A DNA stretch of 64,000 nucleotides from Pyrinomonadaceae bacterium (lineage in GTDB: Bacteria; Acidobacteriota; Blastocatellia; Pyrinomonadales; Pyrinomonadaceae), in assembly GCA_051006195.1 (NCBI GenBank), contig JBPCIP010000069.1, forward strand, positions 5,480 to 69,479, written 5' to 3'. Shown one piece after another: positions 15,186-48,030 of this stretch. The notes under the pieces were generated by a model that worked only from the letters and a program-made list of their open reading frames with translations, ran no database searches and was not told the DNA's origin. Position 1 is the stretch's first letter. Each line of letters starts with the position of its first letter. The position numbers and the translations under genes are program-made.

Positions 15186-15220
15186 GTGATGGATGACGGG
15201 TGATAAGTGACGAGATCAGA
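15186..15220. repeat. Tandem heptamer tract (5 units, GTGAnnn type) between argC and argD
   Basis: gtgatgg atgacgg gtgataa gtgacga gatcaga. TGA recurs every 7 nt, so all three frames are closed. No inverted partner was seen. Confidence 0.7.
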
Positions 15221-15273
15221 AATTGTTGACGCTGCTCGCAGGTCATGCCCGGGAGATCAAGATTGAAGATAAA

Positions 15274-16461
15274 ATGACAAAGGCAATGACAACTTTCGAC
15301 GACATCGCCGCGCGCGAGGATGAATTTCAACTGGCGACATACAGGAAGATGCGTCTGGCGGCGGCACGCGGGCGGGGCGCGTGGATCGAAACGCAGGGGG
15401 GCGAGCGTTATCTGGACCTCTACGGTGGGCACGCCGTGGCGGCGACGGGGCATTGCCACCCGCACGTCGTCGAAGCGATCCGGGCGCAGGCCGGAGAGTT
15501 GTTGTTCTACTCGAACCTCGTTTATTCCGAGGTGCGCGCCAGCGCGGCTGAGCGGTTGGTGAACTGCGCGCCGGAAGGCATCGCCAAAGTTTTCTTCTGC
15601 AATTCGGGGACGGAGGCGAACGAGAACGCGATGCGGATGGCGCGGATGGCGACCGGGCGCGAGGGCGTCATCACGTTCACAGGGAGCTTTCACGGGCGCA
15701 CGGCGGACTCCATCAGCGCGACGTTTCTGGGCAAGTACCGCGACCTCGGACGACCGAACGTGCCCGGCCATGTGTGCGCGGAATTCGGTTCGATGGCCTT
15801 GGTCGCCGCGCTCGCCGACCACACCATCGCCGCCGTGATGCTTGAGCCGATTCAATCGATGGCGGGCGTGAGGCAGGCTCCGCCGGAATTTTATCTCGCG
15901 TTGCGCGAGTTGTGCGACGAGCGCGGGATGCTTTTGATCTATGACGAGGTGCAGACTGGACCGGGGCGCACGGGCGAATGGTTCTTCGCGGGCGGCGCAG
16001 CGGGCGGCGGGGCGGTGCCGGACATCATCACGCTGGCGAAGGCTCTGGGGAGCGGCGTGCCCGTCGGCGCGTGCCTGACGAATGCTGCCGTCGCATCGCG
16101 CATCAAAGAGAACGACCTCGGCACGACCTTCGGCGGCGGGATGCTGGCGATGGCGGCGGTGGGCGCGACGCTTGAAGCGATGGAAAGCGATGGGATGTTA
16201 GAGAACGCGCGCGACATCGAGCGACACTTGCGCGAGTCTCTCAAGAACCTGCCGCAAGTGGCGCGGGTGCGCGGCGCGGGGTTGTTGCTCGGCATCGAAT
16301 TTACGGATGAGATCGCCGCGAAGGTTCATCAGGCGTTGCTCGAAGAGCACATCATCACGGGCACTTCGAGCGACGCCCGCGTGCTGCGACTATTGCCCCC
16401 GCTCTGTGTGCGGCAGGAGGAAATTGACCTGTTTGTTGACGCGCTCGGACGCGTGTTGTAG
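15274..16461 (+). CDS. argD: Acetylornithine (or succinylornithine) aminotransferase, class III
   Basis: LIYDEVQTGPGRTG and ITLAKALGSG (PLP lysine). Start taken at MTKAMTTFDD. Confidence 0.9.
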   Translation: MTKAMTTFDDIAAREDEFQLATYRKMRLAAARGRGAWIETQGGERYLDLYGGHAVAATGHCHPHVVEAIRAQAGELLFYSNLVYSEVRASAAERLVNCAPEGIAKVFFCNSGTEANENAMRMARMATGREGVITFTGSFHGRTADSISATFLGKYRDLGRPNVPGHVCAEFGSMALVAALADHTIAAVMLEPIQSMAGVRQAPPEFYLALRELCDERGMLLIYDEVQTGPGRTGEWFFAGGAAGGGAVPDIITLAKALGSGVPVGACLTNAAVASRIKENDLGTTFGGGMLAMAAVGATLEAMESDGMLENARDIERHLRESLKNLPQVARVRGAGLLLGIEFTDEIAAKVHQALLEEHIITGTSSDARVLRLLPPLCVRQEEIDLFVDALGRVL

Positions 16462-16486
16462 TTCTCCCCGGCCATTTTGAACTCAG

Positions 16487-16981
16487 GTGAAACATATGGC
16501 CTTCACTGTGCGCCGGGCGAGGCGCGAGGATAATGAAGCCATCGGACGAATGCATGTGGCATCCATCAGAGAGCTGTGCCGCGAGCATTACAGCCCCGAT
16601 CAGATCGAAGCCTGGGCCGCGCCGCGTCAGGCTGAATTTTACGTTGAAGCGATTGAGCGCAAAGAGTTCTATGTCGCGGAAGACGACGAGGGCATCATCG
16701 GCTTCGGGATATTGAATCAAACGGGTGGCGAGGTCGAAGCCGTTTATGTTCATCCGCAGGCAGCGCAGCGCGGCGTGGGGCTGGAACTATTAAACATGTT
16801 GGAAGGGTGTGCGCGCGAATTGGGCTTGAGGTCGTTGCGGCTGTGCGCCTCTCTGAATGCCGTGCCGTTTTACGAGCGCGCGGATTACGTCCGGCAGCAG
16901 GATACGTCGCACCGACTGGCGAGCGGAGTTGAGATACCGTGCGTCTTGATGTTGAAGGAACTGGAGAGAAGCGCGGACTGA
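16487..16981 (+). CDS. GNAT family N-acetyltransferase (candidate short N-acylglutamate synthase by context)
   Basis: 164 aa with the acetyl-CoA motif VHPQAAQRGVGLELL. The role is inferred only from its position between argD and argF'. Confidence 0.7.
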   Translation: MKHMAFTVRRARREDNEAIGRMHVASIRELCREHYSPDQIEAWAAPRQAEFYVEAIERKEFYVAEDDEGIIGFGILNQTGGEVEAVYVHPQAAQRGVGLELLNMLEGCARELGLRSLRLCASLNAVPFYERADYVRQQDTSHRLASGVEIPCVLMLKELERSAD

Positions 16982-16989
16982 ACAGTAAC

Positions 16990-18018
16990 ATGAAGGCTAT
17001 GCCGAAAAATTTCCTGACAACTGCCGATTGGACACGCGACGAGCTAGAGCGTTTGCTCGAAGCGGCGGCGCGGTTCAAGCGCGGCGAAGATTCATCGAAG
17101 CCACTCGCGGGTAAGTCCGTCGCGCTGGTCTTTTTTAACCCTTCTTTACGCACGCGCGCTTCGATGCAGGTCGGGATTTATGAACTCGGCGGCAATCCGG
17201 TCGTGCTCGAACCGGGTGGGACGAGCTGGACGCTCGAACACCGCGACGGCATCGTGATGGACGGCGACAAGACGGAGCACGTCGCGGAATTTGTGCGCGT
17301 GCTCGGTCGGTATTGCGCGGCGATTGGCGTGCGCACCTTCGCGGCGTTGCAGAATTGGAAAGAGGAGCGGCGCGATCCGGTGCTCGCGGCATTCGCGCGC
17401 CACAGCGAAGTGCCGGTCATCAATCTCGAATCGGCGATGCACCACCCGTGTCAGGCGCTCGCGGACATGTTGACCATCAGGGAGAAACTCGGCGCGGGGC
17501 CGAAGCGCGTCCTCCTCACCTGGGCGTGGCATCCGAAGGCTTTGCCGATGGCCGTGCCGAACAGTTTCGCGCTCGCGGCGGTGCAGTTGGGGCACGAGTT
17601 GACCATCGCGCACCCGCCCGGCTACGAACTCGACGACGAGCTGATCGGGCAACTCAACGAGCGGGCGTTTGACGCGGGCACAAGCGTCAACGTCACAAAC
17701 GACGTGGAAGCGGCCTTCGACGGCGCACAAGTGGTCTACGCGAAGAGTTGGGGCAGCAAGATGTTCTACGGCTCGCCCGAAGATGACATCGAGACGCGCA
17801 CCGAGTATCGCCGCGATTGGATCGTGGACGCGGCGAAGATGCAACGCACCGGCGGCGGCATCTTCATGCACTGTCTCCCCGTGCGCCGCAACGTGATCGT
17901 GACGGACGACGTGATCGATTCCGCCGCGTCGGTGGTGATCGATGAAGCCGAGAACCGTTTGCATGTGCAGAAAGCTGTTTTGGCGAATGCGGATTTCGGA
18001 TTGCGGAATGCGGATTGA
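16990..18018 (+). CDS. argF': N-acyl-L-ornithine (acetyl/succinyl) carbamoyltransferase, ArgF'-type
   Basis: FFNPSLRTRAS, HHPCQALAD, VYAKSWGS (in place of the DxWxSMG of classical OTC) and FMHCLPVRRN match the AOTCase/SOTCase subfamily. Acyl specificity was not determined. Confidence 0.8.
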   Translation: MKAMPKNFLTTADWTRDELERLLEAAARFKRGEDSSKPLAGKSVALVFFNPSLRTRASMQVGIYELGGNPVVLEPGGTSWTLEHRDGIVMDGDKTEHVAEFVRVLGRYCAAIGVRTFAALQNWKEERRDPVLAAFARHSEVPVINLESAMHHPCQALADMLTIREKLGAGPKRVLLTWAWHPKALPMAVPNSFALAAVQLGHELTIAHPPGYELDDELIGQLNERAFDAGTSVNVTNDVEAAFDGAQVVYAKSWGSKMFYGSPEDDIETRTEYRRDWIVDAAKMQRTGGGIFMHCLPVRRNVIVTDDVIDSAASVVIDEAENRLHVQKAVLANADFGLRNAD

Positions 18019-18069
18019 AGAAATTCAATTTGTTTTTAATCCGCATTCTGCAATCCGAAATCCGCAATT
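17986..18069. repeat. 31-bp-stem palindrome built of heptamers (GCGGATT type) at the argF'/argB junction
   Basis: aatgcggatttcggattgcggaatgcggatt (17986-18016) pairs with aatccgcattctgcaatccgaaatccgcaatt (18038-18069), 2-3 mismatches. The left arm encodes the argF' C-terminus (ANADFGLRNAD*). Confidence 0.85.
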
Positions 18070-18078
18070 GGAGGAGCG

Positions 18079-18966
18079 ATGAGCCAGCCGCGACTTGATC
18101 TGTTGCGCGAAGCCTTGCCGTACATTCAGCGGTTCAAAGGCAAAACTTTCGTCGTCAAAATCTCCGGCAAGCTGACGGAGGATCACGAGAATCTGCGTTC
18201 GCTCTGTGAAGAATTGGCACTGATGCATCAGGTCGGCATTCGTCTGTGCGTCGTACACGGGGGCGGCAAGCAGTTAACGGAACTCGCGGAGCAGATGGGC
18301 GTCGAGCAGACGATCATCAATGGCCGGCGCGTGACGAACGATGCGACGCTCGATATGGCGAAAATGATCTTCGCCGGAAAAATCAACATCGACATTCTGG
18401 CCGCGTTGCGCAATCACGGCGTGGATGCCGTCGGCTTGTCGGGCATCGACGGAAACATCGTGCATGCCGAACGCCGCCCGCCGAAAGATTTAATCAATCA
18501 GGAGACCGGCGCACAAGAGCGAGTCGATTTCGGGCACGTCGGCGATGTGTTGGAAATCGACGATCGGCTGTTGCGGGTGCTGCTCGATCACGAGTATCTG
18601 CCGGTCGTCTCACCGCTCGGTGCGGACGCCGCAGGCCGCGTCTACAACATTAACGCCGACACCATCGCCGCCGAGATCGCCGTGCGTCTGGAGGCGGAGA
18701 AATTGATTTTGCTGAGCGACGTGGATGGGTTGTACCTGCGTCCCGGCGAATCCGCGACGAAACTCTCGCGCCTCACCGTTGACGAAGTGACGAAACTTCT
18801 CAGCGACGGCGTCGCCACCGGGGGCATGATCCCGAAACTGCAAAACATCACCGAACTGCTTCATCGCGGCGTCCGCAGCGCGCATATCATCAAAGGTAGT
18901 TTGCGCAACACTTTGCTCTCCGAAGTCTTCACCGACGAAGGCACGGGCACGATGATCGTCGCGTAA
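18079..18966 (+). CDS. argB: Acetylglutamate kinase
   Basis: VVKISGK, VVHGGG and GGMIPK motifs, 295 aa. Confidence 0.95.
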   Translation: MSQPRLDLLREALPYIQRFKGKTFVVKISGKLTEDHENLRSLCEELALMHQVGIRLCVVHGGGKQLTELAEQMGVEQTIINGRRVTNDATLDMAKMIFAGKINIDILAALRNHGVDAVGLSGIDGNIVHAERRPPKDLINQETGAQERVDFGHVGDVLEIDDRLLRVLLDHEYLPVVSPLGADAAGRVYNINADTIAAEIAVRLEAEKLILLSDVDGLYLRPGESATKLSRLTVDEVTKLLSDGVATGGMIPKLQNITELLHRGVRSAHIIKGSLRNTLLSEVFTDEGTGTMIVA

Positions 18967-19001
18967 AAAAGTGGAGAGCAGCAGGGGCGAAGGGCGACAG
19001 T

Positions 19002-19226
19002 TGCGGCGTCTCCGTCCTCAACTCGACGGGTGCGGAGATCGCGCGTTTCGGCAATGCGCCCGGCAGCCTCATCTCCCCGTTCAACTCACCGGCCAACGCC
19101 GCCTTCGATAAGCACGGCTCGCTCCTCGTGACGAATCACACTTTCGTGTTTCCCGGAAACGAGAGCGTCCTCAGCGTGTTCGTTGACGACAAAGAGTCGC
19201 CGCTCGTGAAACCGTCGCTTCCCTGA
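19002..19226 (+). pseudogene. Orphan 3' fragment of a beta-propeller (SMP-30/gluconolactonase/NHL-like) gene
   Basis: An open frame with no start codon reads ...GVSVLNSTGAEIARFGNAPGSLISPFNSPANAAFDKHGSLLVTNHTFVFPGNESVLSVFVDDKESPLVKPSLP*. It resembles the last blade of such proteins. Confidence 0.35.
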
Positions 19227-19290
19227 AGCAGCAAGAGAGTTTTATTCTTTCGACAGGCGCGACGGTTGCGAACCGCGCGCCTGTTGTGCA

Positions 19291-20451
19291 ATGAAGAACC
19301 TTCAATTCAAACCAGGACAAAAAGGCGACGGCAGGCTTAAGCGGAAGTTGAGCGGCTTCGCCCGGCATTTATGGGACGAGTGGACGCGCCTCGCGCTGCC
19401 CGTGGCAAACGCTGCTGTCGTCGTCGCCGTCTCCGGCGGCGCGGACTCGACCGCGCTGCTGCTGGCCTGCGATGAGTTGCTCAAGTCGCGCCGGCTCGCG
19501 TTGAAGTTGATCGTGGCGCACCTGAATCACGAATTGCGCGGGGCGGCGGGCGCGGCGGATGCGCGTTGGGTCGGGGAGTTGGCGGGCGGGTTGGGATATG
19601 AAGTGGCGTCGGGGCGCGCGGCGGTGAAGCAGCGAGCGCGAGAAACGCGGGATAATTTGGAGCAGGCGGCGCGGCGCGAGCGTTACGAATTTCTGGCGCG
19701 GGTGGCGCGCGAGTGGGGAGCGCGTGCAGTTGTCGTGGCTCACACATTGGACGATCAAGCGGAGACGGTGTTGCTGGCATTGCTGCGCGGAAGCGGAGCG
19801 GAAGGATTGAGCGGGATGAGCGTGGCGCGCACACTCGATGCGCGGGGCGATGGTCTGCTGTTGGTGCGCCCGTTGCTCAATTGGGCACGGCGGTCGGAGA
19901 CAGGGAAGTACTGCGCGGCGCGGGGCGTCGTCGTGCGCGCGGACGAGATGAACGAGGACGAGAAATTTTCGCGTGTGCGGGTGCGCCGACAGTTGTTGCC
20001 ATTGTTGGAAACTTTCAACCCGCGCGCGGCGGAAACGCTGGCCCGCACCGCCGAACTGTTGAGAGCGGATGCGGAAGCGTTGCAAGCACAGGCCGCGGCT
20101 TTGTTGGCGGAAGCTTCTCAGCTTTCAGCGAGAACATTGGGAGCGAAGAGCAACGAGAGCGACGCGCAGTTGAATGATGAGGATGCTGCGATGCGGCACC
20201 CGCCGGCGTTGAACGTCGAAGTGCTGCGCGGGGCGGAGGTGGCCTTGCGCAGGCGGGCGTTGCGGCAGTGGATCGCGGCAGGGCGCGGGAGTTTGCGGCG
20301 CGTGGAGTCGGTGCATGTGGCGGCAGTCGAAAAATTGCTGGAGGCGGGGCGGGGCGGGCGCGTGGCGCAGTTGCCGGGCGGGAGCATGGTGGAGCGGCGG
20401 AGCGGGCTGTTGTTGTTTCATCAGCAGCGGATTCGGGCGGGGAAGAGTTGA
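19291..20451 (+). CDS. tilS: tRNA(Ile)-lysidine synthase
   Basis: PP-loop VAVSGGADSTALLL; conserved tilS-hpt-ftsH order. Confidence 0.9.
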   Translation: MKNLQFKPGQKGDGRLKRKLSGFARHLWDEWTRLALPVANAAVVVAVSGGADSTALLLACDELLKSRRLALKLIVAHLNHELRGAAGAADARWVGELAGGLGYEVASGRAAVKQRARETRDNLEQAARRERYEFLARVAREWGARAVVVAHTLDDQAETVLLALLRGSGAEGLSGMSVARTLDARGDGLLLVRPLLNWARRSETGKYCAARGVVVRADEMNEDEKFSRVRVRRQLLPLLETFNPRAAETLARTAELLRADAEALQAQAAALLAEASQLSARTLGAKSNESDAQLNDEDAAMRHPPALNVEVLRGAEVALRRRALRQWIAAGRGSLRRVESVHVAAVEKLLEAGRGGRVAQLPGGSMVERRSGLLLFHQQRIRAGKS

Positions 20452-20553
20452 AAAAGGTGCAGGAGAGATTTAGAATCGAAAATGTCGCACATGGCTGCTC
20501 ACATTTCGCGGGCGGCCATTGCTTTTCACGGACGGTTTTCGAGGCGGAACAAA

Positions 20554-21060
20554 ATGGCTGAAGGCATTCTGGAAATTCACAGTGCGGCGGAGATCGCAGG
20601 GCGTGTCGAGACGCTCGCGACTGACATCTCGCAGGCTTATGCGGGGCGTGAATTGACCGTGCTCGGCGTGGCGGAAGACGGTTTTATGTTTATCGCAGAT
20701 CTCTTGCGCCGCATCGATATGCCGCTACGGACGGCCTTCGTGCGCTACGATCATCGCTCGCTCGGCGGCGTGCAGGATTTGCACTTCAGCACTCAGTTGG
20801 ACTTGACGCGGCGCGACGTATTGCTCGTCGAAGGCGTGATGGAGACCGGCGTGACGCAGGAATATCTCGTCAAGCAACTCGAATCGCGCGGGGCGGCGAG
20901 CATCAAGTTGTGCGTGCTCGTCGATAAAGTTGATCGCCGGCGGGTCGCGCTCGAACCCGACTGGCGGGCGTTTGAGACGCACGAGGATTACGTCTTCGGT
21001 TATGGTCTGGGCTTTCAGGAGCGGTGGCGGAATTTACCGTTTCTGGCGCGTCCTGCTTGA
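20554..21060 (+). CDS. hpt: Hypoxanthine phosphoribosyltransferase-like protein
   Basis: Type I PRTase layout. The PRPP loop reads VLLVEGVMETGVT (the usual form is VEDIxDTG). Start taken at MAEGILEI. Conserved context. Confidence 0.75.
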   Translation: MAEGILEIHSAAEIAGRVETLATDISQAYAGRELTVLGVAEDGFMFIADLLRRIDMPLRTAFVRYDHRSLGGVQDLHFSTQLDLTRRDVLLVEGVMETGVTQEYLVKQLESRGAASIKLCVLVDKVDRRRVALEPDWRAFETHEDYVFGYGLGFQERWRNLPFLARPA

Positions 21061-21260
21061 GAAGTATTGGCGCGATGTTTGGTGTTTGACGGCAAGGCGA
21101 GCGGGACTGAGAGGCGCAACGCGGCGCGCACCGCAAGCATCTCAAGATGGCGTCGTAGAGAGCCGGGTTTATAAAGGGCGTCAGCATGTGCGCTCCCTTT
21201 TCCGGCAGGTAGCGAGCGAGAGGATTTGTGTGGGAGAGACAACGGATGCCGAAATGAGTT

Positions 21261-23216
<1,956 letters not shown>

Positions 23217-23251
23217 GTAAGACAAGAGGAAAGCAGTAAAGGGGTATTTAG

Positions 23252-23286
23252 AAGGGGAAGGGGAGAATATCCCTTTCCCCTTTTTT
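23252..23286 (+). terminator. Intrinsic terminator of ftsH
   Basis: aaggggaagggg-agaatat-ccctttcccctt followed by a T6 run. Confidence 0.8.
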
Positions 23287-23403
23287 CATCTTTATCGTCA
23301 GCGTCAAACATCTGTTCGCAGAGGCTCTGTGATAGTTGTCAGGATCGGTGTAAGGCATTTAATTTTGAGCGCGTAGCAGACCACTGTTTCTAAATCAGTT
23401 CTT

Positions 23404-23658
23404 ATGACATTGGGACACTCGAAAATCGTTGGTCCAGCACATACCCTCGATGTTTATTGGCTTTCAAGCAAGTTGCCCGAAAGTGTCTGTCCCAATCTTG
23501 TAAGGACTGATTTAGAACTTCCGGCTCGTACCGGACACAAACTTTACGAATTTGGCTTTGTCGGCGCGCAGCCAGGTCGCTGGCGGGTTTGGGCTGTAAA
23601 CTCTAACGGTGACGAGGGGCCAAAATCTCAGTGGTGGGGATTCCGCTACACACAATGA
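23404..23658 (+). CDS. Hypothetical small protein (possible Fn3-like fragment) in a GC-poor islet
   Basis: 84-aa ORF ending ...GRWRVWAVNSNGDEGPKSQWWGFRYTQ. GC is lower than in the flanks. No assignable family. Confidence 0.35.
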   Translation: MTLGHSKIVGPAHTLDVYWLSSKLPESVCPNLVRTDLELPARTGHKLYEFGFVGAQPGRWRVWAVNSNGDEGPKSQWWGFRYTQ

Positions 23659-23704
23659 TAATTGCCAGCGTAAGAGAGAAGACGCGCGGAGCGCGTAAGG
23701 GAGC

Positions 23705-23992
23705 TTACATTGATTTCCAGTCCGCGCCCGCCATTAAACCGGCGACGGATAAATCTTCATCTATCTCAGGCCAGTGTAAGCTCGTGCCGCCGCCGCCGAT
23801 CTCACAGCGCGCCCGTTGCTCCGGTGTCGCTTCCCTTAACAATGGAAACCAGATGAGCGGCACGCTGACGATGCGTCCGTCGGTGAGTAACACGCGCATC
23901 ATCTCGTCGTCAAACTCGACCGTCTTGGCGAGGGCTGAGGTCGGCACATACGCCCGCGCTGAATCACGGTTGTTCTTCGCTAAAGTGCTCAT
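23705..23992 (-). CDS. DUF2442 domain protein
   Basis: MSTLAK...VEFDDEMMRVLLTDGRIVSVPLIWFPLLREATPEQRARCEIGGGGTSLHWPEIDEDLSVAGLMAG matches the DUF2442 pattern. The start is uncertain. Confidence 0.7.
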   Translation of the reverse strand: MSTLAKNNRDSARAYVPTSALAKTVEFDDEMMRVLLTDGRIVSVPLIWFPLLREATPEQRARCEIGGGGTSLHWPEIDEDLSVAGLMAGADWKSM

Positions 23993-24209: not shown

Positions 24210-24347
24210 ACTGTTATCTTAGGCGGTGAAATTATCATACGCAAGCGGTCTCGCGGTGATAGTCTTTGCGCTTTTGGTCTATCAACCAATGAATAATGCA
24301 ATTGAAGGGTTTACCGGCCATTGTGCACACCGCGAGGTAGCCGCTTG

Positions 24348-25214
24348 ATGACGCCCGCCCGCGAATGGCAACTTGCACGTCGCACGCTCGCGTTGGGCGG
24401 GCGCACGCTCATCATGGGCGTCTTAAATGTGACGCCGGATAGCTTCAGCGATGGCGGGCGATTTTACGATCCTGGAAAGGCCGTCGCACATGCCGAAGAG
24501 ATGTTGAGTGCGGGCGCGGACATCATCGACATCGGCGGCGAATCAACGAGGCCGGGCGGCGAAGCGGTGAGTGCGGATGAAGAGTTGCGGCGCGTCCTCC
24601 CCGTCGTCGAACGATTAGCTAAATTGCCGAACGTCGTCGTCTCCATCGACACGACGAAGGCGGAAGTGGCTCGCGCCGCGCTTGACGCCGGGGCGGAGAT
24701 CATCAACGACATCTCCGCACTCCGGTTCGATGCGCAGGTCGCGGATGAAGCGGCGCGTAGCAGCGCAGGACTCGTGCTCATGCACTCGCGCGGCACACCG
24801 GATACCTTGCATCAACTTCCGCCCGTCGCCGAGATTGTCGCGGAGGTGGTCAACAGTCTGCGCCGCAGCATCGCGTTGGCGGAACAGCATGGCGTTTCGC
24901 GCGCCGCCATCGCCATTGATCCCGGCATCGGCTTCGGCAAAAGTCAGGCGCAGAATGTGGAGTTGCTCGCGCGGCTGGCTCATTTAAAGCGGGAGTTCGC
25001 GGATTTGCCGCTCCTCGTCGGCACGTCGCGCAAGTCGTTCATCGGGAGATTGCTTGACAATGCTGCTATCGAAGACCGGCTGCACGGCACGATGGCGACA
25101 ATCACGGCAGCCATCCTGCATGGGGCGGATATCGTCCGCGTCCACGACGTGCGCGCCGCCGTCGAAACTGCGCGTGTGGCGGATGCAATAAAAGCCGTGG
25201 CTCGTGAATCGTGA
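24348..25214 (+). CDS. folP: Dihydropteroate synthase
   Basis: IMGVLNVTPDSFSDGG, DIGGESTRPG, GTSRKSFIG. The ATG at 24348 is preferred over the upstream TTG at 24321. Confidence 0.93.
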   Translation: MTPAREWQLARRTLALGGRTLIMGVLNVTPDSFSDGGRFYDPGKAVAHAEEMLSAGADIIDIGGESTRPGGEAVSADEELRRVLPVVERLAKLPNVVVSIDTTKAEVARAALDAGAEIINDISALRFDAQVADEAARSSAGLVLMHSRGTPDTLHQLPPVAEIVAEVVNSLRRSIALAEQHGVSRAAIAIDPGIGFGKSQAQNVELLARLAHLKREFADLPLLVGTSRKSFIGRLLDNAAIEDRLHGTMATITAAILHGADIVRVHDVRAAVETARVADAIKAVARES

Positions 25215-25247
25215 ATAGAACAAAACATGTCTTCACCTATTCACGAT
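25203..25247. repeat. Heptamer-based hairpin at the folP 3' end
   Basis: Tandem cgtgaat cgtgaat (25203-25216). atcgtgaatag (25208-25218) pairs with ctattcacgat (25237-25247). The folP stop codon is the TGA of the second heptamer. Confidence 0.7.
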
Positions 25248-25881: not shown

Positions 25882-26879
25882 GCACGCTGACACGCGAAGC
25901 ATTGCGGCGCGAGTTGAAGGAAAAGCGCGTCGCGCCGCTCTACCTGCTCCACGGGGCGGAAGACTTTTTGCGTGATTTGGCCGCGCGTCGCATCTCGGAC
26001 GAAGCGTTGCGCGGCGCGAATTTGCGCGAGTTCAACGAAGCGAGTTTCAGCCTTGCCAGCATGGATGTGCAGCAGGCGATTGCCGCCGCCGAGCAGCTTC
26101 CCATGATGGCTGAACGTCGCGTCGTGCGCATCACGGACTTCGCCAAACTGAAGGAGGGGGATGAGGGCGCGCTCCTGCGCTATCTGGCGCGCCCGGCGAC
26201 CAGTTCCGTCGTCATCTTCATCGCGGATGAACTGGACAAGCGGCGCAAGCTGTCGAAGACGTTGATGGAGGCTTGCGTGAGCGTCGAATTCGCGCCGCTC
26301 TCAGACAACGAATTGAGCGTGTGGGCGCGCGATTATCTGAAGAAGTTGAAAGCCGGGGCCGATGAGCGCACGCTCCGGCAGATCATCGGGCTGGTGGGCA
26401 CAAGCGTGCGACGGCTCGCCAATGAGTTGAATAAACTGGCGACCGCCGCGTTGCCCGGCGGACTCATCACGATGGAGTTGGTGGAAACGCTGGGTGTTCG
26501 TTCGCGCGAGTTATCGAATTTTGAATTGACGGATCATCTGGTAGCCGGAGACCGCAGACGTGCGCTGCAAACCCTGCAACGCTTGCTCGACGACGGCGCG
26601 GAACCAGTGATGCTCGTCGGGCTGATCGCGAGCAGTTATCACCGCCTCGCCCTCGCCAAAGAATTGATGTCGGGCGGGAAGCCGAAAGAGGAAGTTTTCC
26701 GGCTCGTCCCGATGCCCTACGGCAAGCGCGAAGATTTTCTCGCCACCGCCCGCCGCACCGACGCGGCAGACCTCACGCGCCGCCTCGCGCGCATCGCCTC
26801 CGCCGATCTCGCCATCAAAACCTCACTCGGCACGCCCCGCCTCCAACTCGAACTGCTTATCTGTGAACTGTCCGGCTAA
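25878..26879 (+). CDS. holA: DNA polymerase III delta subunit
   Basis: 333 aa, APLYLLHGAEDFL N-terminus. Its ATGA overlap with the lptE stop suggests coupling. Confidence 0.85.
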   Translation: MSTLTREALRRELKEKRVAPLYLLHGAEDFLRDLAARRISDEALRGANLREFNEASFSLASMDVQQAIAAAEQLPMMAERRVVRITDFAKLKEGDEGALLRYLARPATSSVVIFIADELDKRRKLSKTLMEACVSVEFAPLSDNELSVWARDYLKKLKAGADERTLRQIIGLVGTSVRRLANELNKLATAALPGGLITMELVETLGVRSRELSNFELTDHLVAGDRRRALQTLQRLLDDGAEPVMLVGLIASSYHRLALAKELMSGGKPKEEVFRLVPMPYGKREDFLATARRTDAADLTRRLARIASADLAIKTSLGTPRLQLELLICELSG

Positions 26880-26913
26880 CCCGAAGCGAAGTGCGGCTGC
26901 ATTATTTCATCCG

Positions 26914-27351
26914 TTAGAAATCCAGCGGCTTCAAGTCCGGCTCGACCCACGACTGTTTTGCTTCTCCTGACTCAATGCGCTCGCGGCTGTAATACTCGAA
27001 GACGAGACGTGAATGGTCGTAAACGGTGAGCAGTTCGTTGGCCTGTTCCGTGAGCGAGTGGGTGGTTTCCGCCCGGTCGAGAAAGTGGCGCACGAGCTTG
27101 AGCCAGAAGCGGGTGAGCGTTTCGTGGTAGCCATCGGAGTTGTGATGTTTGGTGAAGCGATGCAAGCCTGCACGCATGCGTTCCACGGCTGCCGGGGCGG
27201 GCAGTTGAGACAGATACCAGAAGGCGACGGTGAGATGTGCGTGATGGTTGAATTCGGAAGGCTCGATGCTACAGGACTCGAAATTCTGCACTAATTGCTC
27301 AATCTCTGCGAGGTCGTGAAAATAATTTTGCTCGCGGCCTGTGACGTTCAT
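26914..27351 (-). CDS. Conserved hypothetical protein
   Basis: 145-aa ORF with coding-like composition (…DGYHETLTRFWLKLVRHFL…). No family recognised. Confidence 0.55.
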   Translation of the reverse strand: MNVTGREQNYFHDLAEIEQLVQNFESCSIEPSEFNHHAHLTVAFWYLSQLPAPAAVERMRAGLHRFTKHHNSDGYHETLTRFWLKLVRHFLDRAETTHSLTEQANELLTVYDHSRLVFEYYSRERIESGEAKQSWVEPDLKPLDF

Positions 27352-27383
27352 CTTTCACCTCCGGGGTAGAACCGAAATAAAAG

Positions 27384-27420
27384 CAGCGAGGCGGATCGAA
27401 TTGCTCGATCCGCCTCGCTG
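27384..27420 (-). terminator. Intrinsic terminator of rpsT
   Basis: cagcgaggcggatcga-attgc-tcgatccgcctcgctg, followed on the minus strand by cttttatttc. Confidence 0.75.
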
Positions 27421-27446
27421 TCGTCAAGTCGTTTGAAAAAAAAGTG

Positions 27447-27716
27447 TTACTGCGCGCCGATTTGGTTGACGCGGGTGGTCAGCCGCGATTTATAACGCGC
27501 GGCGGCGTTTCTGTGCAGGACGCCTTTTTGCACGGACTTATCAATGGATGAAATTGTCTGTGACAGCACGGCCTGAAGCGCGTCTTTATCGCCTACGGTG
27601 ATGGCGGCGCGCAGTTTCTTGATTTCCGTGCGTAGACGGGTGCGATTGCTGCGATTGATCGATTTGCGCCGTTCGTTCTGGCGCATACGCTTTTCGGCTG
27701 ATTTATGATTAGGCAT
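27447..27716 (-). CDS. rpsT: 30S ribosomal protein S20
   Basis: MPNHKSAEKRMRQNERRKSINRSNRTRLRTEIKKL..., 89 aa. The longer ORF start at 27944 is rejected. Confidence 0.95.
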   Translation of the reverse strand: MPNHKSAEKRMRQNERRKSINRSNRTRLRTEIKKLRAAITVGDKDALQAVLSQTISSIDKSVQKGVLHRNAAARYKSRLTTRVNQIGAQ

Positions 27717-27809
27717 CTTCTGAAACTCCGTCGGAAATCCAAAGAACTTGTAATGCTGATGGGCTGCGCTGGCGACAATCAGCAATTTGGCTGTCAGCGC
27801 AAAAGGCAA

Positions 27810-27838
27810 AGTATAGGTATCAGGAGTGGCTGTGTCAA
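27810..27838 (-). promoter_or_regulatory. Candidate sigma70-type promoter of rpsT
   Basis: On the minus strand: TTGACA (27838-27833), 17 nt, TATACT (27815-27810), about 90 nt upstream of the rpsT ATG. Confidence 0.5.
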
Positions 27839-28011
27839 GGTGCGGCGTTCGGCAAGCGGGCGAGCAACCGCCCGACTTCGTTGACACATGTGGGGGCATG
27901 TAGTAGCGTTTTACCTGCAATATGCCGAAACCGAAATTGCTCACCTGCCGCCGCTCCTGACTCCTGCGATAATGAACCTCCGCCCACGATTAAGGAGATA
28001 ACAAGCTCACT

Positions 28012-28965
28012 TTGAAGAAAATCGAACTACCGCCACGAGGAATTGAAACGCTCTTCGGCGTCCACGACCAGAACATCAAACATCTGGAATCATTGCTCGA
28101 CGTGCGCATCGACGCGCGCGGTCAGGATTTGACCATTGACGGCGACCCGAAAGATGTCGCCACGGTCGAGAAGATACTCGAAGACTTCACCGCGCTTTTC
28201 ACCGAAGGTAAAACCTTCACCGACCGCGAACTGCGCGAAGCCTTCGCCCAGATCGCCGAAGACCGCGCTTATTCGCTGCGCGACTATTTCACCAAAGCGC
28301 GCTTCAACCCGGCGGGCAAAAAACAGGTCGCGCCCAAGTCCGCCAACCAACGCCACTACATCGAGGCCATCCAAAATAAAGATGTCGTCTTTGGCGTCGG
28401 CGTGGCTGGGACTGGGAAGACCTATTTGGCTGTGGCGATGGCGATACAGGCGTTGATGCAGAAGCAGGTGAGCCGCATCGTGCTGGCGCGCCCGGCTGTG
28501 GAAGCGGGCGAGAAGTTGGGTTTCCTGCCGGGCGATTTGCAGGACAAGGTTGACCCTTACCTGCGCCCGCTCTACGACGCGCTCTTCGATTTGATCGAAG
28601 CCGAACGCGTCACGAAGCTCCTGGAGAAGCGCGTCATCGAAGTCGCGCCGCTCGCCTTCATGCGGGGTCGCACACTTGCAGATGCTTTCATCATCCTCGA
28701 CGAAGCGCAGAACACGACGAGCGAGCAGATGAAGATGTTTCTCACGCGCATCGGCTTCGGCTCGAAGGCCGTCATCACGGGCGACGTGACGCAGATCGAT
28801 TTGCCGACGGGCAAACGCAGCGGCCTCGTCGAAGCCGAGCGCATCCTTTCCAAAGTCGAAGGCATCGAGTTCGTTTATTTCACGGATAAAGATGTCGTGC
28901 GCCATCGCCTCGTGCAACTGATCATCAGGGCTTACGAAAATCATTCGAGCAAGAGCGGTTTGTGA
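28012..28965 (+). CDS. phoH: PhoH-family ATPase (PhoH/YbeZ)
   Basis: TTG start with AAGGAG 15 nt upstream. Walker [15 protein letters not shown], Walker [10 protein letters not shown]. Confidence 0.92.
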
Positions 28966-28966
28966 T

Positions 28967-31024
28967 ATGCCAATCGAAACGATTTTCCCACTTGCAGGTG
29001 CATGGCTCTGGAGCAATTACGGAAAGAGCCTTGCCGGTAAAGTCTTTGATGCAGGCAAGGAAAAATGGGACGAGTCGAAGTGGGAAACTGCCGCCAGAGC
29101 CTATCGCGCAAAAATCATCAAGCAATACGACTCGATGCAAATTATGGGCATGGTCAAGCCTGTGCCGCTCGATGACATTTTCACCGAGGCTTACATGCTG
29201 GATAAGCCCACCGCCTACGGGCGGTTCGACATCGAAGACTTGAAACAGAAGTCCGCCGCAGACCCGGATGCGCCGCCGCACGCGGAACGAATCAACGGAT
29301 TGAAACTGGTCAGGGATACAGGCAACCTCTTTATCCTGGGGAAGCCGGGCGCGGGTAAAACAACTTTCCTCAAATATATCGCCCTCAAAGCCGCCGAGCA
29401 GTTACTAGATAAAGTCCCGATCTTCATTTCGCTCAAACAATGGGCTGATTCCGGCGTAGAGTTGTTGCCCTTCATCGCAGGGCGTTTCGACATTTTCGAC
29501 TTTCCCGTAGCGCAGCCGTTTGTCGAGGAACTATTGAAATCGGGCGGCGCGATTGTGTTGTTCGACGGCCTTGATGAAGTCAATCAGGAGGACGGGCAAA
29601 GGGACAAGCAAACGCGCGCGATGAACAATTTCATCGAGAAGTATGACCGGACGCAATGCCTCATCACCTGCCGCATCGCCGCCAGCGATTATTCCTTCGA
29701 GCCATTCGCTTACGTCGAGATCGCCGACTTCACCGAAGCGCAGATTCACACGTTTGTCCGCAACTGGTTTCGTAAAGGGGGGAAGAAAGACGAAGAAACC
29801 AGCGCTAAATTTCTGTCTGAGTTTGCGAGGGACGACAACAAAGGCTTGCGCGATCTGGCGCGCACGCCGCTGCTTTTGACGTTGCTGTGTCTGGCCTTCA
29901 ACGAGACGCTGACCATTCCGCCGCGACGGGTTGAAATTTACGAGGAAGCGTTGGACGCACTGTTGAAGAAATGGGACTCGTCACGAAGGATTAAGCGCGA
30001 CGAAGTTTATCGCAAGCTGTCGCTGGGTCATAAAGAGAACATGCTGGCGAGTATCGCGGCGGAGACGTTTGAACGAAACGAATATTTCATCCCGCAGGCG
30101 GAACTGGAAAGACGCATCACGGCTTACGTCAGGAACGTGCCGCCGCACGACGCGAACGAAGCGACCGACGGAGAAGCGATTCTCAAAGCGATTGAGGCGC
30201 AACACGGCATTTTCGTAGAGCGCGCCCGCGCGGTGTATTCCTTTTCGCACCTGACTTTTCAGGAATACTTTACGGCGAAGTATATTGTTGCTAATGCGTC
30301 CAAAGGCACGTTGACGAATCTGGTCAAAGAGCATTGCGCGGACGGGCGTTGGCGTGAAGTGTTCCTGTTGACGACAAGTTTGTTGCCGGATGCCAGCCAT
30401 TTTATGACGGCCTTCCGGCGCAGCGTGGATAATTTTCTCGAAGAGGATGAAAAGCTGCGGGAATTGTTGGCTTGGGCGGATAACAAATCGGCTTCAATTC
30501 AAGCTGATCCCTGGTTAGTGAGACCGTACTATTTGTACATAGAGATTTACTATCGAAGCCGAAACCGCGCCCTCGCCCTCGACCGCGCCCTCGCCCTCGA
30601 CCTCGCCCTCGACCGCGCCCTCGCCCTCGACCTCGCCCTCGACCTCGCCCTCGCCCGCGCCCTCGACCTCGCCCGCGCCCTCGACCTCGCCCGCGACCTC
30701 GCCCTCGCCCGCGCCCGCGACTTGGGATTGAACGAGTTTGCAAAAGAATTAGCCGCGCTCTCGTTACCAACCGACACCTCTCCTACCGCAGAGTGGCAGG
30801 TGTTCGCGGATAAATTGCGAGCCTTGATGATCAAGCACAGGGACATCGGGCATGATTGGAATTTAACCGATCCACAGGAAGCGCGATTGGCTGATTACCT
30901 CAACGCCACGCGCTTGCTGCAAGATTGTTTGGAGTTGGCTGTGATCTCGCCGGATGAAAAGAAGGCGATGCTAAACAGTTTGTATTTGCCACCGGCTCAG
31001 GCAGAGGATGGGCAAAATGCCTGA
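28967..31024 (+). CDS. NACHT-domain STAND NTPase with a C-terminal [A/D][L/R] dipeptide-repeat tract
   Basis: Walker A ILGKPGAGKTTFLKYIAL, Walker B IVLFDGLDEV, and downstream TPLLLTLLCLAF and FSHLTFQEYFTAKYI typical of NACHT modules. A short ~35-aa hydrophobic/amphipathic N-terminus precedes the NTPase. Confidence 0.85.
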   Translation: MPIETIFPLAGAWLWSNYGKSLAGKVFDAGKEKWDESKWETAARAYRAKIIKQYDSMQIMGMVKPVPLDDIFTEAYMLDKPTAYGRFDIEDLKQKSAADPDAPPHAERINGLKLVRDTGNLFILGKPGAGKTTFLKYIALKAAEQLLDKVPIFISLKQWADSGVELLPFIAGRFDIFDFPVAQPFVEELLKSGGAIVLFDGLDEVNQEDGQRDKQTRAMNNFIEKYDRTQCLITCRIAASDYSFEPFAYVEIADFTEAQIHTFVRNWFRKGGKKDEETSAKFLSEFARDDNKGLRDLARTPLLLTLLCLAFNETLTIPPRRVEIYEEALDALLKKWDSSRRIKRDEVYRKLSLGHKENMLASIAAETFERNEYFIPQAELERRITAYVRNVPPHDANEATDGEAILKAIEAQHGIFVERARAVYSFSHLTFQEYFTAKYIVANASKGTLTNLVKEHCADGRWREVFLLTTSLLPDASHFMTAFRRSVDNFLEEDEKLRELLAWADNKSASIQADPWLVRPYYLYIEIYYRSRNRALALDRALALDLALDRALALDLALDLALARALDLARALDLARDLALARARDLGLNEFAKELAALSLPTDTSPTAEWQVFADKLRALMIKHRDIGHDWNLTDPQEARLADYLNATRLLQDCLELAVISPDEKKAMLNSLYLPPAQAEDGQNA
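30565..30726 (+). repeat. Hexanucleotide (G[AC]CC[TG]C) tandem repeat inside the NACHT gene
   Basis: About 27 units encode RALALDRALALDLALDRALALDLALDLALARALDLARALDLARDLALARARDL. All six frames are open here, which produces the artefactual GRGRGR/ARARSR minus-strand ORFs. Confidence 0.9.
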
Positions 31025-31029
31025 GGCGG

Positions 31030-31458
31030 ATGATGATTGAAGTCGTCAACCGTCAGCGCAAGCTGCCGCTTGATTGCGAATGCTGGGAAGCGTTTGCGGC
31101 GAAAGCGTTGAAAGTTGCTCCTGCTCGCGGCGTGGGCGTGACCGTCGCGTTCGTGTCAGACCGCGCGATGCGGGAACTCAATTGGCGTTGGCGCGGCAAG
31201 CGCGGGACGACCGATGTGTTGTCGTTTCCGGCGGAGCAGGCGGAGTTTGAAAAGTTGACGGGGGCGACGCTCGGCGATGTGGTAATTTCGGTCGAGCGGG
31301 CGGAGAAACAGGCAGCAGAGCATAATTTGAGTTTTGAGAGGGAAGTGGAACAATTGATCTTGCACGGCGTGCTCCACCTGTGCGGGCACGATCACGAAAC
31401 TGATGACGGCGAAATGAACGCGCTCGAACTGCGCTTGCGCCGTCGTCTTGGAATATAA
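31030..31458 (+). CDS. ybeY: rRNA maturation endoribonuclease YbeY
   Basis: HGVLHLCGHDHE zinc motif, 142 aa. Confidence 0.95.
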   Translation: MMIEVVNRQRKLPLDCECWEAFAAKALKVAPARGVGVTVAFVSDRAMRELNWRWRGKRGTTDVLSFPAEQAEFEKLTGATLGDVVISVERAEKQAAEHNLSFEREVEQLILHGVLHLCGHDHETDDGEMNALELRLRRRLGI

Positions 31459-31477
31459 TGAAGAGTAATCAATAGTA

Positions 31478-31546
31478 AGTAGTCAGCAGCCAGTAGAAAA
31501 GCGGTGTTTTTCCTGTCTGGCTAGCGGCTACTGGCTACTGACTACT
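31478..31546. repeat. Heptamer-based palindrome (AGTnAGn type) between ybeY and corC-like
   Basis: agtagtcagcagccagtag (31478-31496) pairs with ctactggctactgactact (31528-31546), 1 mismatch, 31-nt loop. Confidence 0.85.
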
Positions 31547-31553
31547 GACCGTT

Positions 31554-32876
31554 ATGGAAATTGAGATAGGGATCACTGGTTTGCTGCTCGTCGCGCTGGC
31601 GTTTCTGGCGTCGATTGATATGGCGTTCGGCGAGTTGAGCGATGTCGGGCTGCGCCGTTTGATCGGGGAGGCGGAGGACGAACGCCCGACCGCCGCGACG
31701 ACTTTTCTCAGCGAGATACTGGAAAGCCGTTCGCGTTTTCGCTTTACGCTCGCCGTCTCCATCCTGCTCTTAGTCGTCACGATCTCCGTCCTCGTCACCT
31801 CCATCATCTCTCAATTGATTTATCGCGCGCCGCAGGCGCAAGCGTTTCCTTATCCCGGCTTTCTCCTGTTGGCCGCCGCCGCCAGCGTCACGCTGACGGG
31901 ACTCGCGCGCCAGATCATTCCGCGCTTCATCGCTTCGAGCAACCCGGAGGCGACGCTGGTTCGCCTGTTGCCCATCCTGCGCCCTTTCTATCGCACGCTC
32001 TCGGTCGTCGCTTTTTCGTGGCACAGGTCGTTTGACCGCCCGCGTCGCAGCGAGCATGTGACCGAGATCGGCGCGGCGGAGGATGAAGACGATAACGGCG
32101 ACGACTTGCAGGCGTTGATCGATGTGGGCGAAGAGGAGGGCATTCTCGAAGAAGAAGAGGGCGAACTGATCCACTCGATCATCGAGTTTGGCGACACGCG
32201 CGTCAGCGAAGTGATGACGCCGCGCACGGAGATTGCCGCCATCCCGATCACTTCGACGGTGCGCGAGGTGCGCGACCGCGTCGTTGAATCGAAATATTCG
32301 CGCCTGCCCGTCTATCGCGATCAAATCGACAACATCGAAGGCATCATCTACGTGCGCGATCTGCTGCAATGCTGGGTGGAGGGGCGCGAGGATGATTCGA
32401 TCCAATCGCTCATTCGGCCTACGCTGTTCGTGCCAGCGACGAAGCCCGTCGCCGAACTGCTTGAAGAGATGCAAAAGAAGCACGCGCAACTCGCAATGGT
32501 GATCGATGAATATGGCGGCGTTGCGGGACTGGCGACGGTCGAAGATATACTGGAAGAGATCGTCGGGGAGATCGAAGACGAAGATACCGGCCTTGAAGAA
32601 GTCGTCGAGATCGTCGAAGCGAGCGACGGTTATTACGATGTGCTCGGTTCAACCGAAGTGGACAAGATCGAACGACTCTTCGAGTTTGAGTTTGAGGAAG
32701 ACGACGACGTGACAACCATCGCCGGTCTCGTCATCGGCGAACTCGGCTATGTGCCGCGTCCCGGAGAGCATCTCAGCTTTCGCGGCCTCGACGTGGAAGT
32801 GCTGGAAGCGGACGAGCGGCGCATCAATCGCCTGCGCCTGCGCCGCGTGGCAGCAAAGGCGGCGGAAGTAGAATAA
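31554..32876 (+). CDS. CNNM/CorC-HlyC family protein (DUF21 TM domain + CBS pair + CorC_HlyC)
   Basis: 440 aa, N-terminal TM domain, CBS-pair region (VSEVMTPRTEI...), C-terminal transporter-associated domain. Classical phoH-ybeY-corC neighbourhood. Confidence 0.85.
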   Translation: MEIEIGITGLLLVALAFLASIDMAFGELSDVGLRRLIGEAEDERPTAATTFLSEILESRSRFRFTLAVSILLLVVTISVLVTSIISQLIYRAPQAQAFPYPGFLLLAAAASVTLTGLARQIIPRFIASSNPEATLVRLLPILRPFYRTLSVVAFSWHRSFDRPRRSEHVTEIGAAEDEDDNGDDLQALIDVGEEEGILEEEEGELIHSIIEFGDTRVSEVMTPRTEIAAIPITSTVREVRDRVVESKYSRLPVYRDQIDNIEGIIYVRDLLQCWVEGREDDSIQSLIRPTLFVPATKPVAELLEEMQKKHAQLAMVIDEYGGVAGLATVEDILEEIVGEIEDEDTGLEEVVEIVEASDGYYDVLGSTEVDKIERLFEFEFEEDDDVTTIAGLVIGELGYVPRPGEHLSFRGLDVEVLEADERRINRLRLRRVAAKAAEVE

Positions 32877-32970
32877 AGTTAAACAAAAACGTTTGACCGC
32901 GAGGCGCGCAGTGATGAAATAAGAGTTGCTTAACTTTCATCATTCCGCGTCCTTCGTTTATATTGTCGGC

Positions 32971-34107
32971 ATGGCGAAAAAGAAGAGTAAGTACCTGCGC
33001 GGGCGGCGCATTGACCCGAAGCCCATCACGGCTGAGATCGCGCTCGCGGACTTGATTGATGAAACTTTTCTGGCTTACAACGCGGCGCGACTGCGCGAGG
33101 CGTGCCAGTTGTTCACGCAGAAGATGTTGGAGCCGGACGTAACGGTGGGCGTCTCGATCACGGGCGCACTCACGCCCGCCGGATTGGGCATCTCCGCCTT
33201 GATCCCCCTGATGCGCGCGGGCTTCATCGACTGGATCATCACCACCGGCGCGAACCTCTATCACGACACGCATTTCGGCATCGGCCTCTCGCTTCATCAA
33301 GGCAACACGAGCGTCTCCGACATCACGCTGCGCGAAGAAGAAGTGGTGCGCATCTACGACATCTTCTTCGATTATTCGGTGCTGCTCGACACCGATGAGT
33401 TCTTTCGTCGCATCATCGAAGGCGAAGAATTTCAAAGGCCGATGTCCACGGCGGAATTTCATCACCTCTGCGGTCGCTATGTGCGCGAGCGCGAGCTAAA
33501 ACTCGGACTCGAATACAAGTCGCTCCTGGCTGCTGCCTACGAGTTCGGCGTGCCGCTCTACACTTCTTCGCCCGGCGATTCGAGCATCGGCATGAACGTG
33601 GCGGCGAAGGCTTTGCAGGGCAATAAACTGGCCTTCGACCCGTCGCTCGACGTGAACGAAACCGCCTCGATCGTGCTGGCCGCCAAGCGCGGCGCGATTC
33701 ATGGCAAAGGCGACCGTGGGCGCAAGCACGGCGGGCGAAGCGCGGTCTTCATCCTCGGCGGCGGCTCGCCCAAAAATTTCCTGCTCCAAACCGAGCCGCA
33801 GATACAGGAAGTGCTCGGCATCGACGAACGCGGCCACGACTTCTTTTTACAAATCACGGACGCCCGACCCGACACGGGAGGCCTCTCCGGCGCGACGCCC
33901 GGCGAAGCGGTCTCGTGGGGGAAAGTTGACCCGGAACGTTTGCCGGACGCCGTTGTGTGCTATGTTGATGCGACCGTGGCCCTGCCGTTGCTGACGGCTT
34001 ATGCATTAGCGCGACACGAACCGCGCGAGTTGAAACGTCTGTATGAACGGCGCGGCGAGTTGATGAATCTGCTGCTGTCGGAATATGAAAAATCCGAGAG
34101 ACGATAA
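32971..34107 (+). CDS. Deoxyhypusine synthase-like (DHS family) protein
   Basis: [11 protein letters not shown]...[14 protein letters not shown]...[15 protein letters not shown] is the DHS-family NAD-binding pattern. Confidence 0.75.
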
Positions 34108-34113
34108 AAGCAG

Positions 34114-34183
34114 TGACGAGTGACAGGTGACAAGATTGAAGCAATGCTGTTCTGACCCGTTACTTGTCACCTGTCACTCGTCA
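34114..34183. repeat. Heptamer-based palindrome (GTGACnn type), perfect 21-bp stem
   Basis: tgacgagtgacaggtgacaag (34114-34134) pairs with cttgtcacctgtcactcgtca (34163-34183), 28-nt loop. Confidence 0.9.
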
Positions 34184-34199
34184 TTTCTGAAGAGAAATC

Positions 34200-34676
34200 A
34201 TGGGGAAGAAGATCACTGATGACCAGCCGCGCGTTTATTTCGATTGCTCGAAATGTCCGGCGTTCTGCTGCGGGCTGTATGAGCGGATTCAAGTGACCAA
34301 ACGCGATCTGAATCGACTGGCGAAACACTTCGGGGTGTCGGTCGAGACGGCGACGAAGCGTTATACGAAGATGTGGGACGGGAAGGAGCGCGTGCTTAAG
34401 CGCACGCCCGACCCCATCCTGGGGACGGCCTGCCAGTTTCTCGATCATGAGACGCGTGGTTGCACGATCTACCACGCCCGCCCACAGGTATGTCGCGAAT
34501 ATCCGGATCGCGTGCGTTGCGTCTACTATGACGTGCTGCAATTCGAGCGGCGACAGCAGGACGATCAGAGCGTGCTGCCTCTTTTTCAAATCACCTTCCG
34601 CGAAGTGGAAGAGAAGGTAGTCACAGACGACGACGGCAGCGAAAAAATCTTGGAATGGAAAACTAAGAAACGGTGA
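34200..34676 (+). CDS. YkgJ-family cysteine-cluster protein (CxxCxxCC, UPF0153)
   Basis: FDCSKCPAFCCGLYERIQV plus later Cys residues (GCTIYHARPQVCREYP). Confidence 0.8.
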   Translation: MGKKITDDQPRVYFDCSKCPAFCCGLYERIQVTKRDLNRLAKHFGVSVETATKRYTKMWDGKERVLKRTPDPILGTACQFLDHETRGCTIYHARPQVCREYPDRVRCVYYDVLQFERRQQDDQSVLPLFQITFREVEEKVVTDDDGSEKILEWKTKKR

Positions 34677-34730
34677 GTGGTAAATGGTGAATGGACAAAG
34701 CCTGTCCTCACCATTTACCACTCACCGTTT
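34668..34730 (+). terminator. Heptamer-based (GGTnAnT) hairpin, 23-bp perfect stem plus inner 5-bp stem, then a T-run
   Basis: aaacggtgagtggtaaatggtga (34668-34690) pairs with tcaccatttaccactcaccgttt (34708-34730). The ykgJ-like stop codon is the TGA of the first heptamer. Confidence 0.85.
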
Positions 34731-48025: not shown

Positions 48026-48030
48026 AAATT

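Follow-up and report, generated by a model that had tools for sequence, protein, structure and literature searches.

Do the stop codons that crowd into tandem 7-nt repeats between bacterial genes serve to stop translation, or do they follow from the way such repeats are built? The question is raised by a 64,000-nt stretch of DNA from a soil bacterium of the Pyrinomonadaceae (Acidobacteriota; G+C 59.4%), further called the window, which has in its intergenic regions some 13 hairpins or arrays of 7-nt periodicity, nearly each of them with its own unit. Period-7 runs number 28 in the window, as against 1-8 for the periods 4, 5, 8, 10 and 11, none of which is a multiple of three. An initial annotation of the window noted correctly that 7 = 1 mod 3, so that a unit with one stop trinucleotide closes all three reading frames within three units. 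It proposed further that the repeat arms act as all-frame translational stops joined to RNA hairpins, and that they remodel the C-termini of proteins. The remodelling is supported by orthologue alignments, while the selected stop is not: with a probability of about 0.7, the stop-rich arms are a by-product of the arithmetic, of arm chirality and of the abundance of two repeat families, and not a purpose-built translation stop.

The sample amounts to about 0.9 Mb from two genomic neighbourhoods, with 69 loci around mrdA and 9 loci around argF'. The mrdA set comprises 749 kb of ingroup DNA and 310 kb of outgroup DNA from public genomes, the close relatives in it being metagenome-assembled genomes of Pyrinomonadaceae and Blastocatellia; the argF' set is a second, independent one and comes from nine other genomes. 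Hairpins were detected with our own hairpin finder, and the ingroup hairpins counted as 7-periodic have a lag-7 identity of at least 0.7. Genes of the window were identified through Pfam and the names of homologues.

Protein tails encoded by heptamer arrays

Real genes do use the stops of the arrays. Among 109 junctions at which a hairpin follows a gene, the upstream stop lies before the array in 84 (77%), inside the first array in 22 and in the loop in 3. In the window, folP terminates at the TGA (25212-25214) in the second of its CGTGAAT units, and a CxxCxxCC/YkgJ-family gene at the TGA (34674-34676) of GGTGAGT, the first unit of the hairpin at 34668; both stops had been assigned in this way by the initial annotation and are confirmed by their coordinates, as is the end of mreC, which is read on the minus strand through two GTGACAG units and finishes with ...KAVTGDR* at the third TGA (63507-63509). 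The C-termini of argF' (N-acetylornithine carbamoyltransferase; ...ANADFGLRNAD*) and mrdA (PBP2; ...LEVRGQRSVTN*) had been ascribed to repeat arms as well. Their sequences agree with this, except that mrdA reads its whole first arm (..GLEVRGQRS) and has the stop itself (60856-60858) in the loop, not in the arm.

Orthologue alignments place the divergence of these tails exactly at the onset of the array, and the divergent residues read as translation of the array. The argF' orthologues are conserved to ..NRLH(V/A)QKA(V/I)(L/M), beyond which 97 different tails were found among 120 proteins; KAVTSDE and KAVTGDE are translated GTGAC arrays, and ADFG(L/M)RNA(D/E) is a translated TGCGGAT array. The folP orthologues are conserved to ..ARIADAI(K/R) and continue with AVTSDE, AVTSDK, AVTGDR or AVNRES, the last of which is GCC GTG AAT CGT GAA TCG TGA, while folP in lineages that lack the array ends with RAASLT. 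In most species mreC ends at unit one, two or three of a GTGAC or GTAAAT array. The mrdA orthologues are conserved to ..VYYRKTR, and their tails span from 12 to about 60 residues beyond this point; RGQ(K/R)PE(A/V)RGQ and EVRGQRSEV in them are in-frame AGAGGTC arrays, and at two loci (L017 and L044) the mrdA open reading frame (ORF) continues through the arm and an 85-nt loop. Since array-encoded tails occur at unrelated genes, unrelated proteins converge on the same tail, and orthologues of folP, argF' and mreC all arrive at AVT[S/G]D[E/K/R]*, that is at translated GTGAC arrays. Thus, the alignments support the view that the arrays have remodelled protein C-termini, as was initially suggested.

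For annotation this means that the last 3-35 residues of many Pyrinomonadaceae proteins are translated repeat DNA, and the same kind of repeat-derived protein ends should probably be expected in other lineages rich in heptamer hairpins. AVTSDE*, AVNRES*, ADFGLRNAD* and RGQRSEV repeats should not be taken as functional motifs or as a signal of homology. In evolutionary terms, a non-coding repeat hands identical C-terminal tails to unrelated proteins, and the repeat period together with the unit sets the length of the tail, which is 0-6 residues with units that contain stops and tens of residues with units that do not.

Stop codons in the arms and their expected number

If the arms had been selected as stops, ribosomes in any frame and from either direction would terminate at the foot of the hairpin, which would thereby be left free to fold. 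Several counts favour such a device and weigh against a by-product. The first arms contain, weighted by copy, 599 stops where 450 ± 22 are expected when columns are permuted within each array, a null that preserves the period; under the same null 30% of first arms should close all three frames and 46% do so. Stops per position, again copy-weighted, reach 0.114 in first (entering) arms and 0.042 in exit arms, and when one element is taken per junction an excess of about 2 sd is still present. Of the hairpin-followed genes, 62% have every frame closed by 45 nt past the stop, vs. 15% of other genes; TAAA motifs with which loops begin favour the sense strand (33 vs. 11), and, as described above, 25 of 109 genes end inside an element. 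Moreover, the C-poor chirality of the arms, to which the by-product would be due in part, could itself be a product of stop selection, C being absent from stop codons, and the sample consists of two genomic neighbourhoods (0.9 Mb) and not of whole genomes.

However, the excess is not found among distinct units, of which 24 out of 49 consensus units contain a stop compared with 22.3 expected after permutation of the letters within each unit (P = 0.34); random heptamers of first-arm composition contain one in 46%. The copy-weighted excess is confined to two superfamilies, GTGAYRR (40 copies) and NGTRAAT (27 copies), and it is reversed in the argF' set, where the first arms have 38 stops against 57 ± 8 under the null, the exit arms are richer in stops and AGTTTCA is the dominant family. 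Arms that translation never enters are equally stop-dense: arms which face the 3′ end of a gene have 0.110 stops per position and those which face a 5′ end have 0.115, the first arms count 267 stops in sense and 270 in antisense orientation, and the window hairpin at 48028 is stop-dense although it lies between divergent gene starts, where no translation enters. Most upstream genes (the 77% given above) terminate ahead of the array, and the same positions at the same junctions are occupied by the stop-less families AGAGGTC, AGTTTCA, TGCGGAT and GGGAAAA, mrdA reading through an entire arm. The analogous repeats of Xanthomonas are stop-less (PMC4692102). In view of these data, no sign of selection acting on the stops themselves is observed, and a selected all-frame stop is an unlikely explanation of the arms.

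The by-product explanation works as follows. In this lineage the short spacers between co-directional genes are filled with very stable hairpins whose arms consist of 2-5 tandem heptamers belonging to dozens of unit families. The arithmetic lets any stop-bearing unit close three frames, and stop-bearing units are common (about 46% from composition) because the first arm is rich in G, A and T and poor in C on either strand. The families GTGAYRR and NGTRAAT, both stop-bearing, are by coincidence those with the most copies near the mre operon. At about one junction in 4-5 the data show the array overlapping the 3′ end of the upstream gene, whose native tail is swapped for array-encoded residues; the gene then terminates where the array first offers a stop in frame, so that unrelated proteins end in convergent tails (AVTSDE*, for example), or, with a stop-less array, continues across the arm for 10 to more than 30 residues, as in mrdA. 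On this account the elements themselves may be intercistronic stem-loops in operon mRNA or tolerated selfish palindromes, and the stops would not be kept by selection locus by locus. The analysis reveals no new translational device, and in its statistical tests selection for the stops as such is disfavoured.

Spread, anatomy and origin of the hairpins

Could the hairpins be ordinary terminators or random intergenic palindromes, and their heptamers an artefact of chance or annotation? About half of the strong hairpins in the sampled genomes are indeed non-periodic, yet this explanation is barely credible. Strong hairpins with a 7-nt period are 118 of 226 in the ingroup and 0 of 10 in the outgroup; 7 is the best period in those 118, and any other period is best in 1-3. 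Most predicted RNA folds of the window elements lie between -27 and -58 kcal/mol, with z from -5 to -12. An intrinsic (Rho-independent) terminator has a short GC-rich stem, a loop of 3-8 nt and at least 4 T directly after the stem. Here the stems are 14-40 bp long, the median loop is about 28 nt, and with flanks that are A-rich 5′ and T-rich 3′ a T-run of at least 4 follows the hairpin in just 18 of 103 cases; most elements are situated inside operons, directly before the next start codon, and the terminator was rejected as an identity for them. A search of the window against Rfam gave zero family matches.

Heptamer hairpins characterise the Pyrinomonadaceae lineage as a whole. Relatives with a PBP2 identity of 70% or more have 1.8-1.9 of them per 10 kb; in the class with 60-69% PBP2 identity the density is 0.8 per 10 kb, and four loci of that class have no elements. 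Out of 114 elements placed in context, 103 stand between tandem (co-directional) genes, 8 between divergent and 3 between convergent ones. The first arm is purine-rich on either strand, with G exceeding C in 106 and the reverse in 8 of the 118 heptamer hairpins; in non-periodic hairpins of the same genomes the numbers are 76 and 18. Arm mismatches compatible with G.U pairing are 58 in sense and 65 in antisense orientation, hence they give no strand signal of selection at the RNA level. A search of RNA runs for the sequence yielded none that contain it.

At one and the same junction different species have different units, and neighbouring junctions within a genome tend toward a shared unit family; together, this same-family neighbourhood and turnover across species suggest local copying or gene conversion between elements. 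Pairs of neighbours with a shared family are seen in L013 (8262/9242), L027 (4016/5006), L029 (8305/9287) and the window (62823/63450). Nested or compound elements occur at L011 (9241-10005), L042 (9162-9296) and L008 (944-1058), their forms being a CGTAAAT hairpin within the loop of a GTGAC hairpin and an AGTTTCA-type half-array within a GTGAC loop. Over window positions 60776-60922 the depth of metagenome contigs rises about 5-fold at the AGAGGTT array, where contigs also break and have flanks that are unrelated; arrays of this type are thus present in multiple copies in the source communities.

A different origin of the stops would be local seeding, in which slippage duplicates a heptamer that contains or follows a stop, so that the arrays inherit stop trinucleotides, the stop region being the first place where a 7-nt duplication leaves the protein frame unshifted. 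Arrays that begin at the stop or 0-12 nt after it fit such an origin, as do the many arrays whose first base is the A of a TAG stop (T|AGTGATG, T|AGCTGTT) and the 11 of 22 in-array stops that have a same-phase stop 7 or 14 nt downstream. Nevertheless, unit families recur at unrelated junctions and genes (GTGAC at folP, argF', mreC and mreD), shared families at neighbouring junctions and nesting point to copying between sites, and the matching inverted arm would have to arise as well. In addition, strain-level metagenome contigs over three elements showed zero 7-nt insertions or deletions. Such local seeding is improbable.

The position of the elements allows for one more function. The array begins at a median of 4 nt past the upstream stop (109 junctions) and the first in-frame start codon of the following gene is found at a median of 9 nt beyond the exit arm, hence stop and start would come to lie side by side at the base of the folded stem. 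Downstream starts are nearly devoid of Shine-Dalgarno-like sequence (such a tetramer precedes 1% of them vs. 19% of control genes, start calls being rough). Stop, hairpin and start might be one translational coupling module, in which a terminating ribosome could re-initiate across the stem without unwinding it, in analogy to shunting in the cauliflower mosaic virus leader, and stop-rich first arms would make ribosomes of any frame terminate at the take-off point; we consider the module, the shunt and this role of the arms alike doubtful. Use of Shine-Dalgarno sequences seems to be rare across the lineage as a whole.

The units of the window elements, by position, are GTGACNN (15186, 34109, 62823 and 63450), TGCGGAT (17988), CGTGAAT (25203), AGTAGYC (31475), GGTRAAT (34668), GGGAAAA (43428, the only G-tract-type unit among them), AAGTGAT (48031) and AGAGGTY (55609 and 60819). 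The elements and one non-periodic hairpin are the following:

15186..15213, + strand: lone array of four GTGAYNN-type heptamers, 5 nt 3′ of the argC stop (15179-15181); five stop trinucleotides
17988..18066: TGCGGAT-type hairpin between argF' and argB, arms 17988-18019 and 18035-18066, fold -57.2 kcal/mol (z -11.2); both the argF' tail NADFGLRNAD and its stop (18016-18018) lie in the first arm, which closes one frame only
25203..25246: short CGTGAAT hairpin at the folP end, weak fold of -13.3 kcal/mol, z -2.6
31475..31549: AGTAGYC-type hairpin between ybeY and a corC-like gene
34109..34188: GTGACNN hairpin, 2 nt after the TAA (34105-34107) of a deoxyhypusine-synthase-like gene, fold -41.7 kcal/mol; three TGA; the downstream start codon is 12 nt beyond the paired arm, which ends at 34188
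34668..34730: GGTRAGT/GGTAAAT hairpin with perfect 23-nt arms, fold -47.6 kcal/mol
39028..39102: stable hairpin that is not 7-periodic (lag-7 identity 0.35), first arm without a stop
43428..43493: perfect GGGAAAA hairpin 3′ of a GGDEF gene, stops absent on both strands
48028..48097: AAGTGAT hairpin, flanked on either side by the start of a divergent gene
55609..55658: short AGAGGTT hairpin between an RNase E/G gene and a hydrolase gene
60819..60897: AGAGGTY hairpin between mrdA and rodA, fold -55.8 kcal/mol; two frames closed; the rodA ATG is 4 nt after the second arm
62823..62905: GTGACAA-type hairpin between mreD and mrdA
63450..63531: GTGACAG hairpin between mreC and mreD

Counted over 15 window sites, the arm that is read first closes three frames in 7, two in 2, one in 2 and none in 4. 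Complete closure on the + strand was found at 15186, 25203, 34109, 34668, 48028, 62823 and 63450. The sites for which the initial annotation had named such closure include 15186, 34109, 34668, 48028 and 63450, where it is present, and 31475, where the + strand has two frames closed and the - strand three. The statement that an arm halts translation from both directions is borne out at 34109, with all frames closed on both strands, and does not apply to 15186, which is no palindrome: the array lacks an inverted partner, and no reverse-complement match of at least 6 nt was found downstream of it (within about 240 nt). Two stop-less gggaaaa elements had been listed as exceptions; 43428 is one, while 39028 has a stop-less first arm and is neither 7-periodic nor gggaaaa.

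Other repeats of the window differ from the heptamer hairpins. Two direct arrays, TCAAGTTTCAGGTC (14021-14053) and TGAACCTTCAAACA (14123-14154), both perfect and with units of 14 nt, flank the spacer before argC; a hairpin between 14026 and 14123 was rejected, the two arrays being mutually non-complementary. After ftsH (23236-23276) there is a hairpin, GGGGAAGGGGAG...CCCTTTCCCCTTTTTT, with a T-run, which resembles an ordinary intrinsic terminator. At 1074-1102 and 1498-1526 lie inverted tandem-octamer arms (CTTTGCGC) separated by a loop of about 395 nt with an ORF for a PDDEXK_3 protein (GxxExxY-type nuclease; E 4.7e-22), seen at this one locus only. The element 1074-1526 looks like a gene-carrying relative of the heptamer design, but its period is 8 and its arm is pyrimidine-first, i.e., of opposite chirality.

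Comparison with known repeats

Intergenic palindromes of operon spacers are known as REP/BIME elements and MITEs, which can stabilise upstream mRNA and sometimes add C-terminal residues. Each REP family has a single conserved consensus and is tied to a RAYT transposase, and MITEs show target-site duplications and are conserved in their internal sequence. By contrast, copies with the same unit in the window share the heptamer only and their loops are unrelated; no target-site duplication was seen at the elements. Nesting, the families shared between neighbours and the depth spike at the AGAGGTT array show all the same that copying between sites takes place.

The closest counterpart was reported in Xanthomonas campestris and X. 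axonopodis, whose genomes have 70-75 inverted pairs of GGGAATC heptamer arrays each, situated between aligned ORFs within 50 bp of a stop codon and in some cases overlapping it (Rehm et al., 2015; PMC4692102). Both systems are built of at least two tandem 7-nt units in convergent arrays capable of forming a stem-loop with the G-rich arm first, and both lie between co-directional ORFs near the stop, with the position conserved between species and the length variable. Xanthomonas, however, has one G-quadruplex-prone, stop-less unit per genome, whereas here there are about 50 unit types, mostly without G-tracts and many with TGA, TAA or TAG, and arrays that encode protein tails are a feature of the present elements, unlike the GGGAATC pairs.

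All-frame closure was described for TAACTGA direct heptamers of marine Beggiatoaceae, cyanobacteria and Bacteroidetes, whose forward repeats give stops in all three frames and hence are placed at ORF ends; in 13 cases there is an overlap with the upstream stop codon, and the genes downstream of them are often without a Shine-Dalgarno sequence (MacGregor, 2015; PMC4679880). These heptamers are intergenic and close all frames as do the present ones (46% of first arms in the mrdA set and 7 of the 15 window sites; some families do not), yet they are a single unit in direct orientation (one inverted case of 170) with no long hairpin, whereas the present elements are inverted pairs. TAACTGA is not on the list of about 49 distinct units counted here. 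Cyanobacterial STRR and the long simple-sequence repeats of Mrazek et al. (2007) are likewise dominated by heptamers and intergenic, as summarised in the same two reports (PMC4679880; PMC4692102). In these summaries they are direct arrays of few units per genome, and no hairpin or link to C-termini is described there.

Heptamer hairpins of Pyrinomonadaceae or Acidobacteria were not the subject of any paper found in a literature search. The architecture is already known in kind; what is new is the large number of unit families, how densely the elements occur, and that protein tails are demonstrably rewritten by them.

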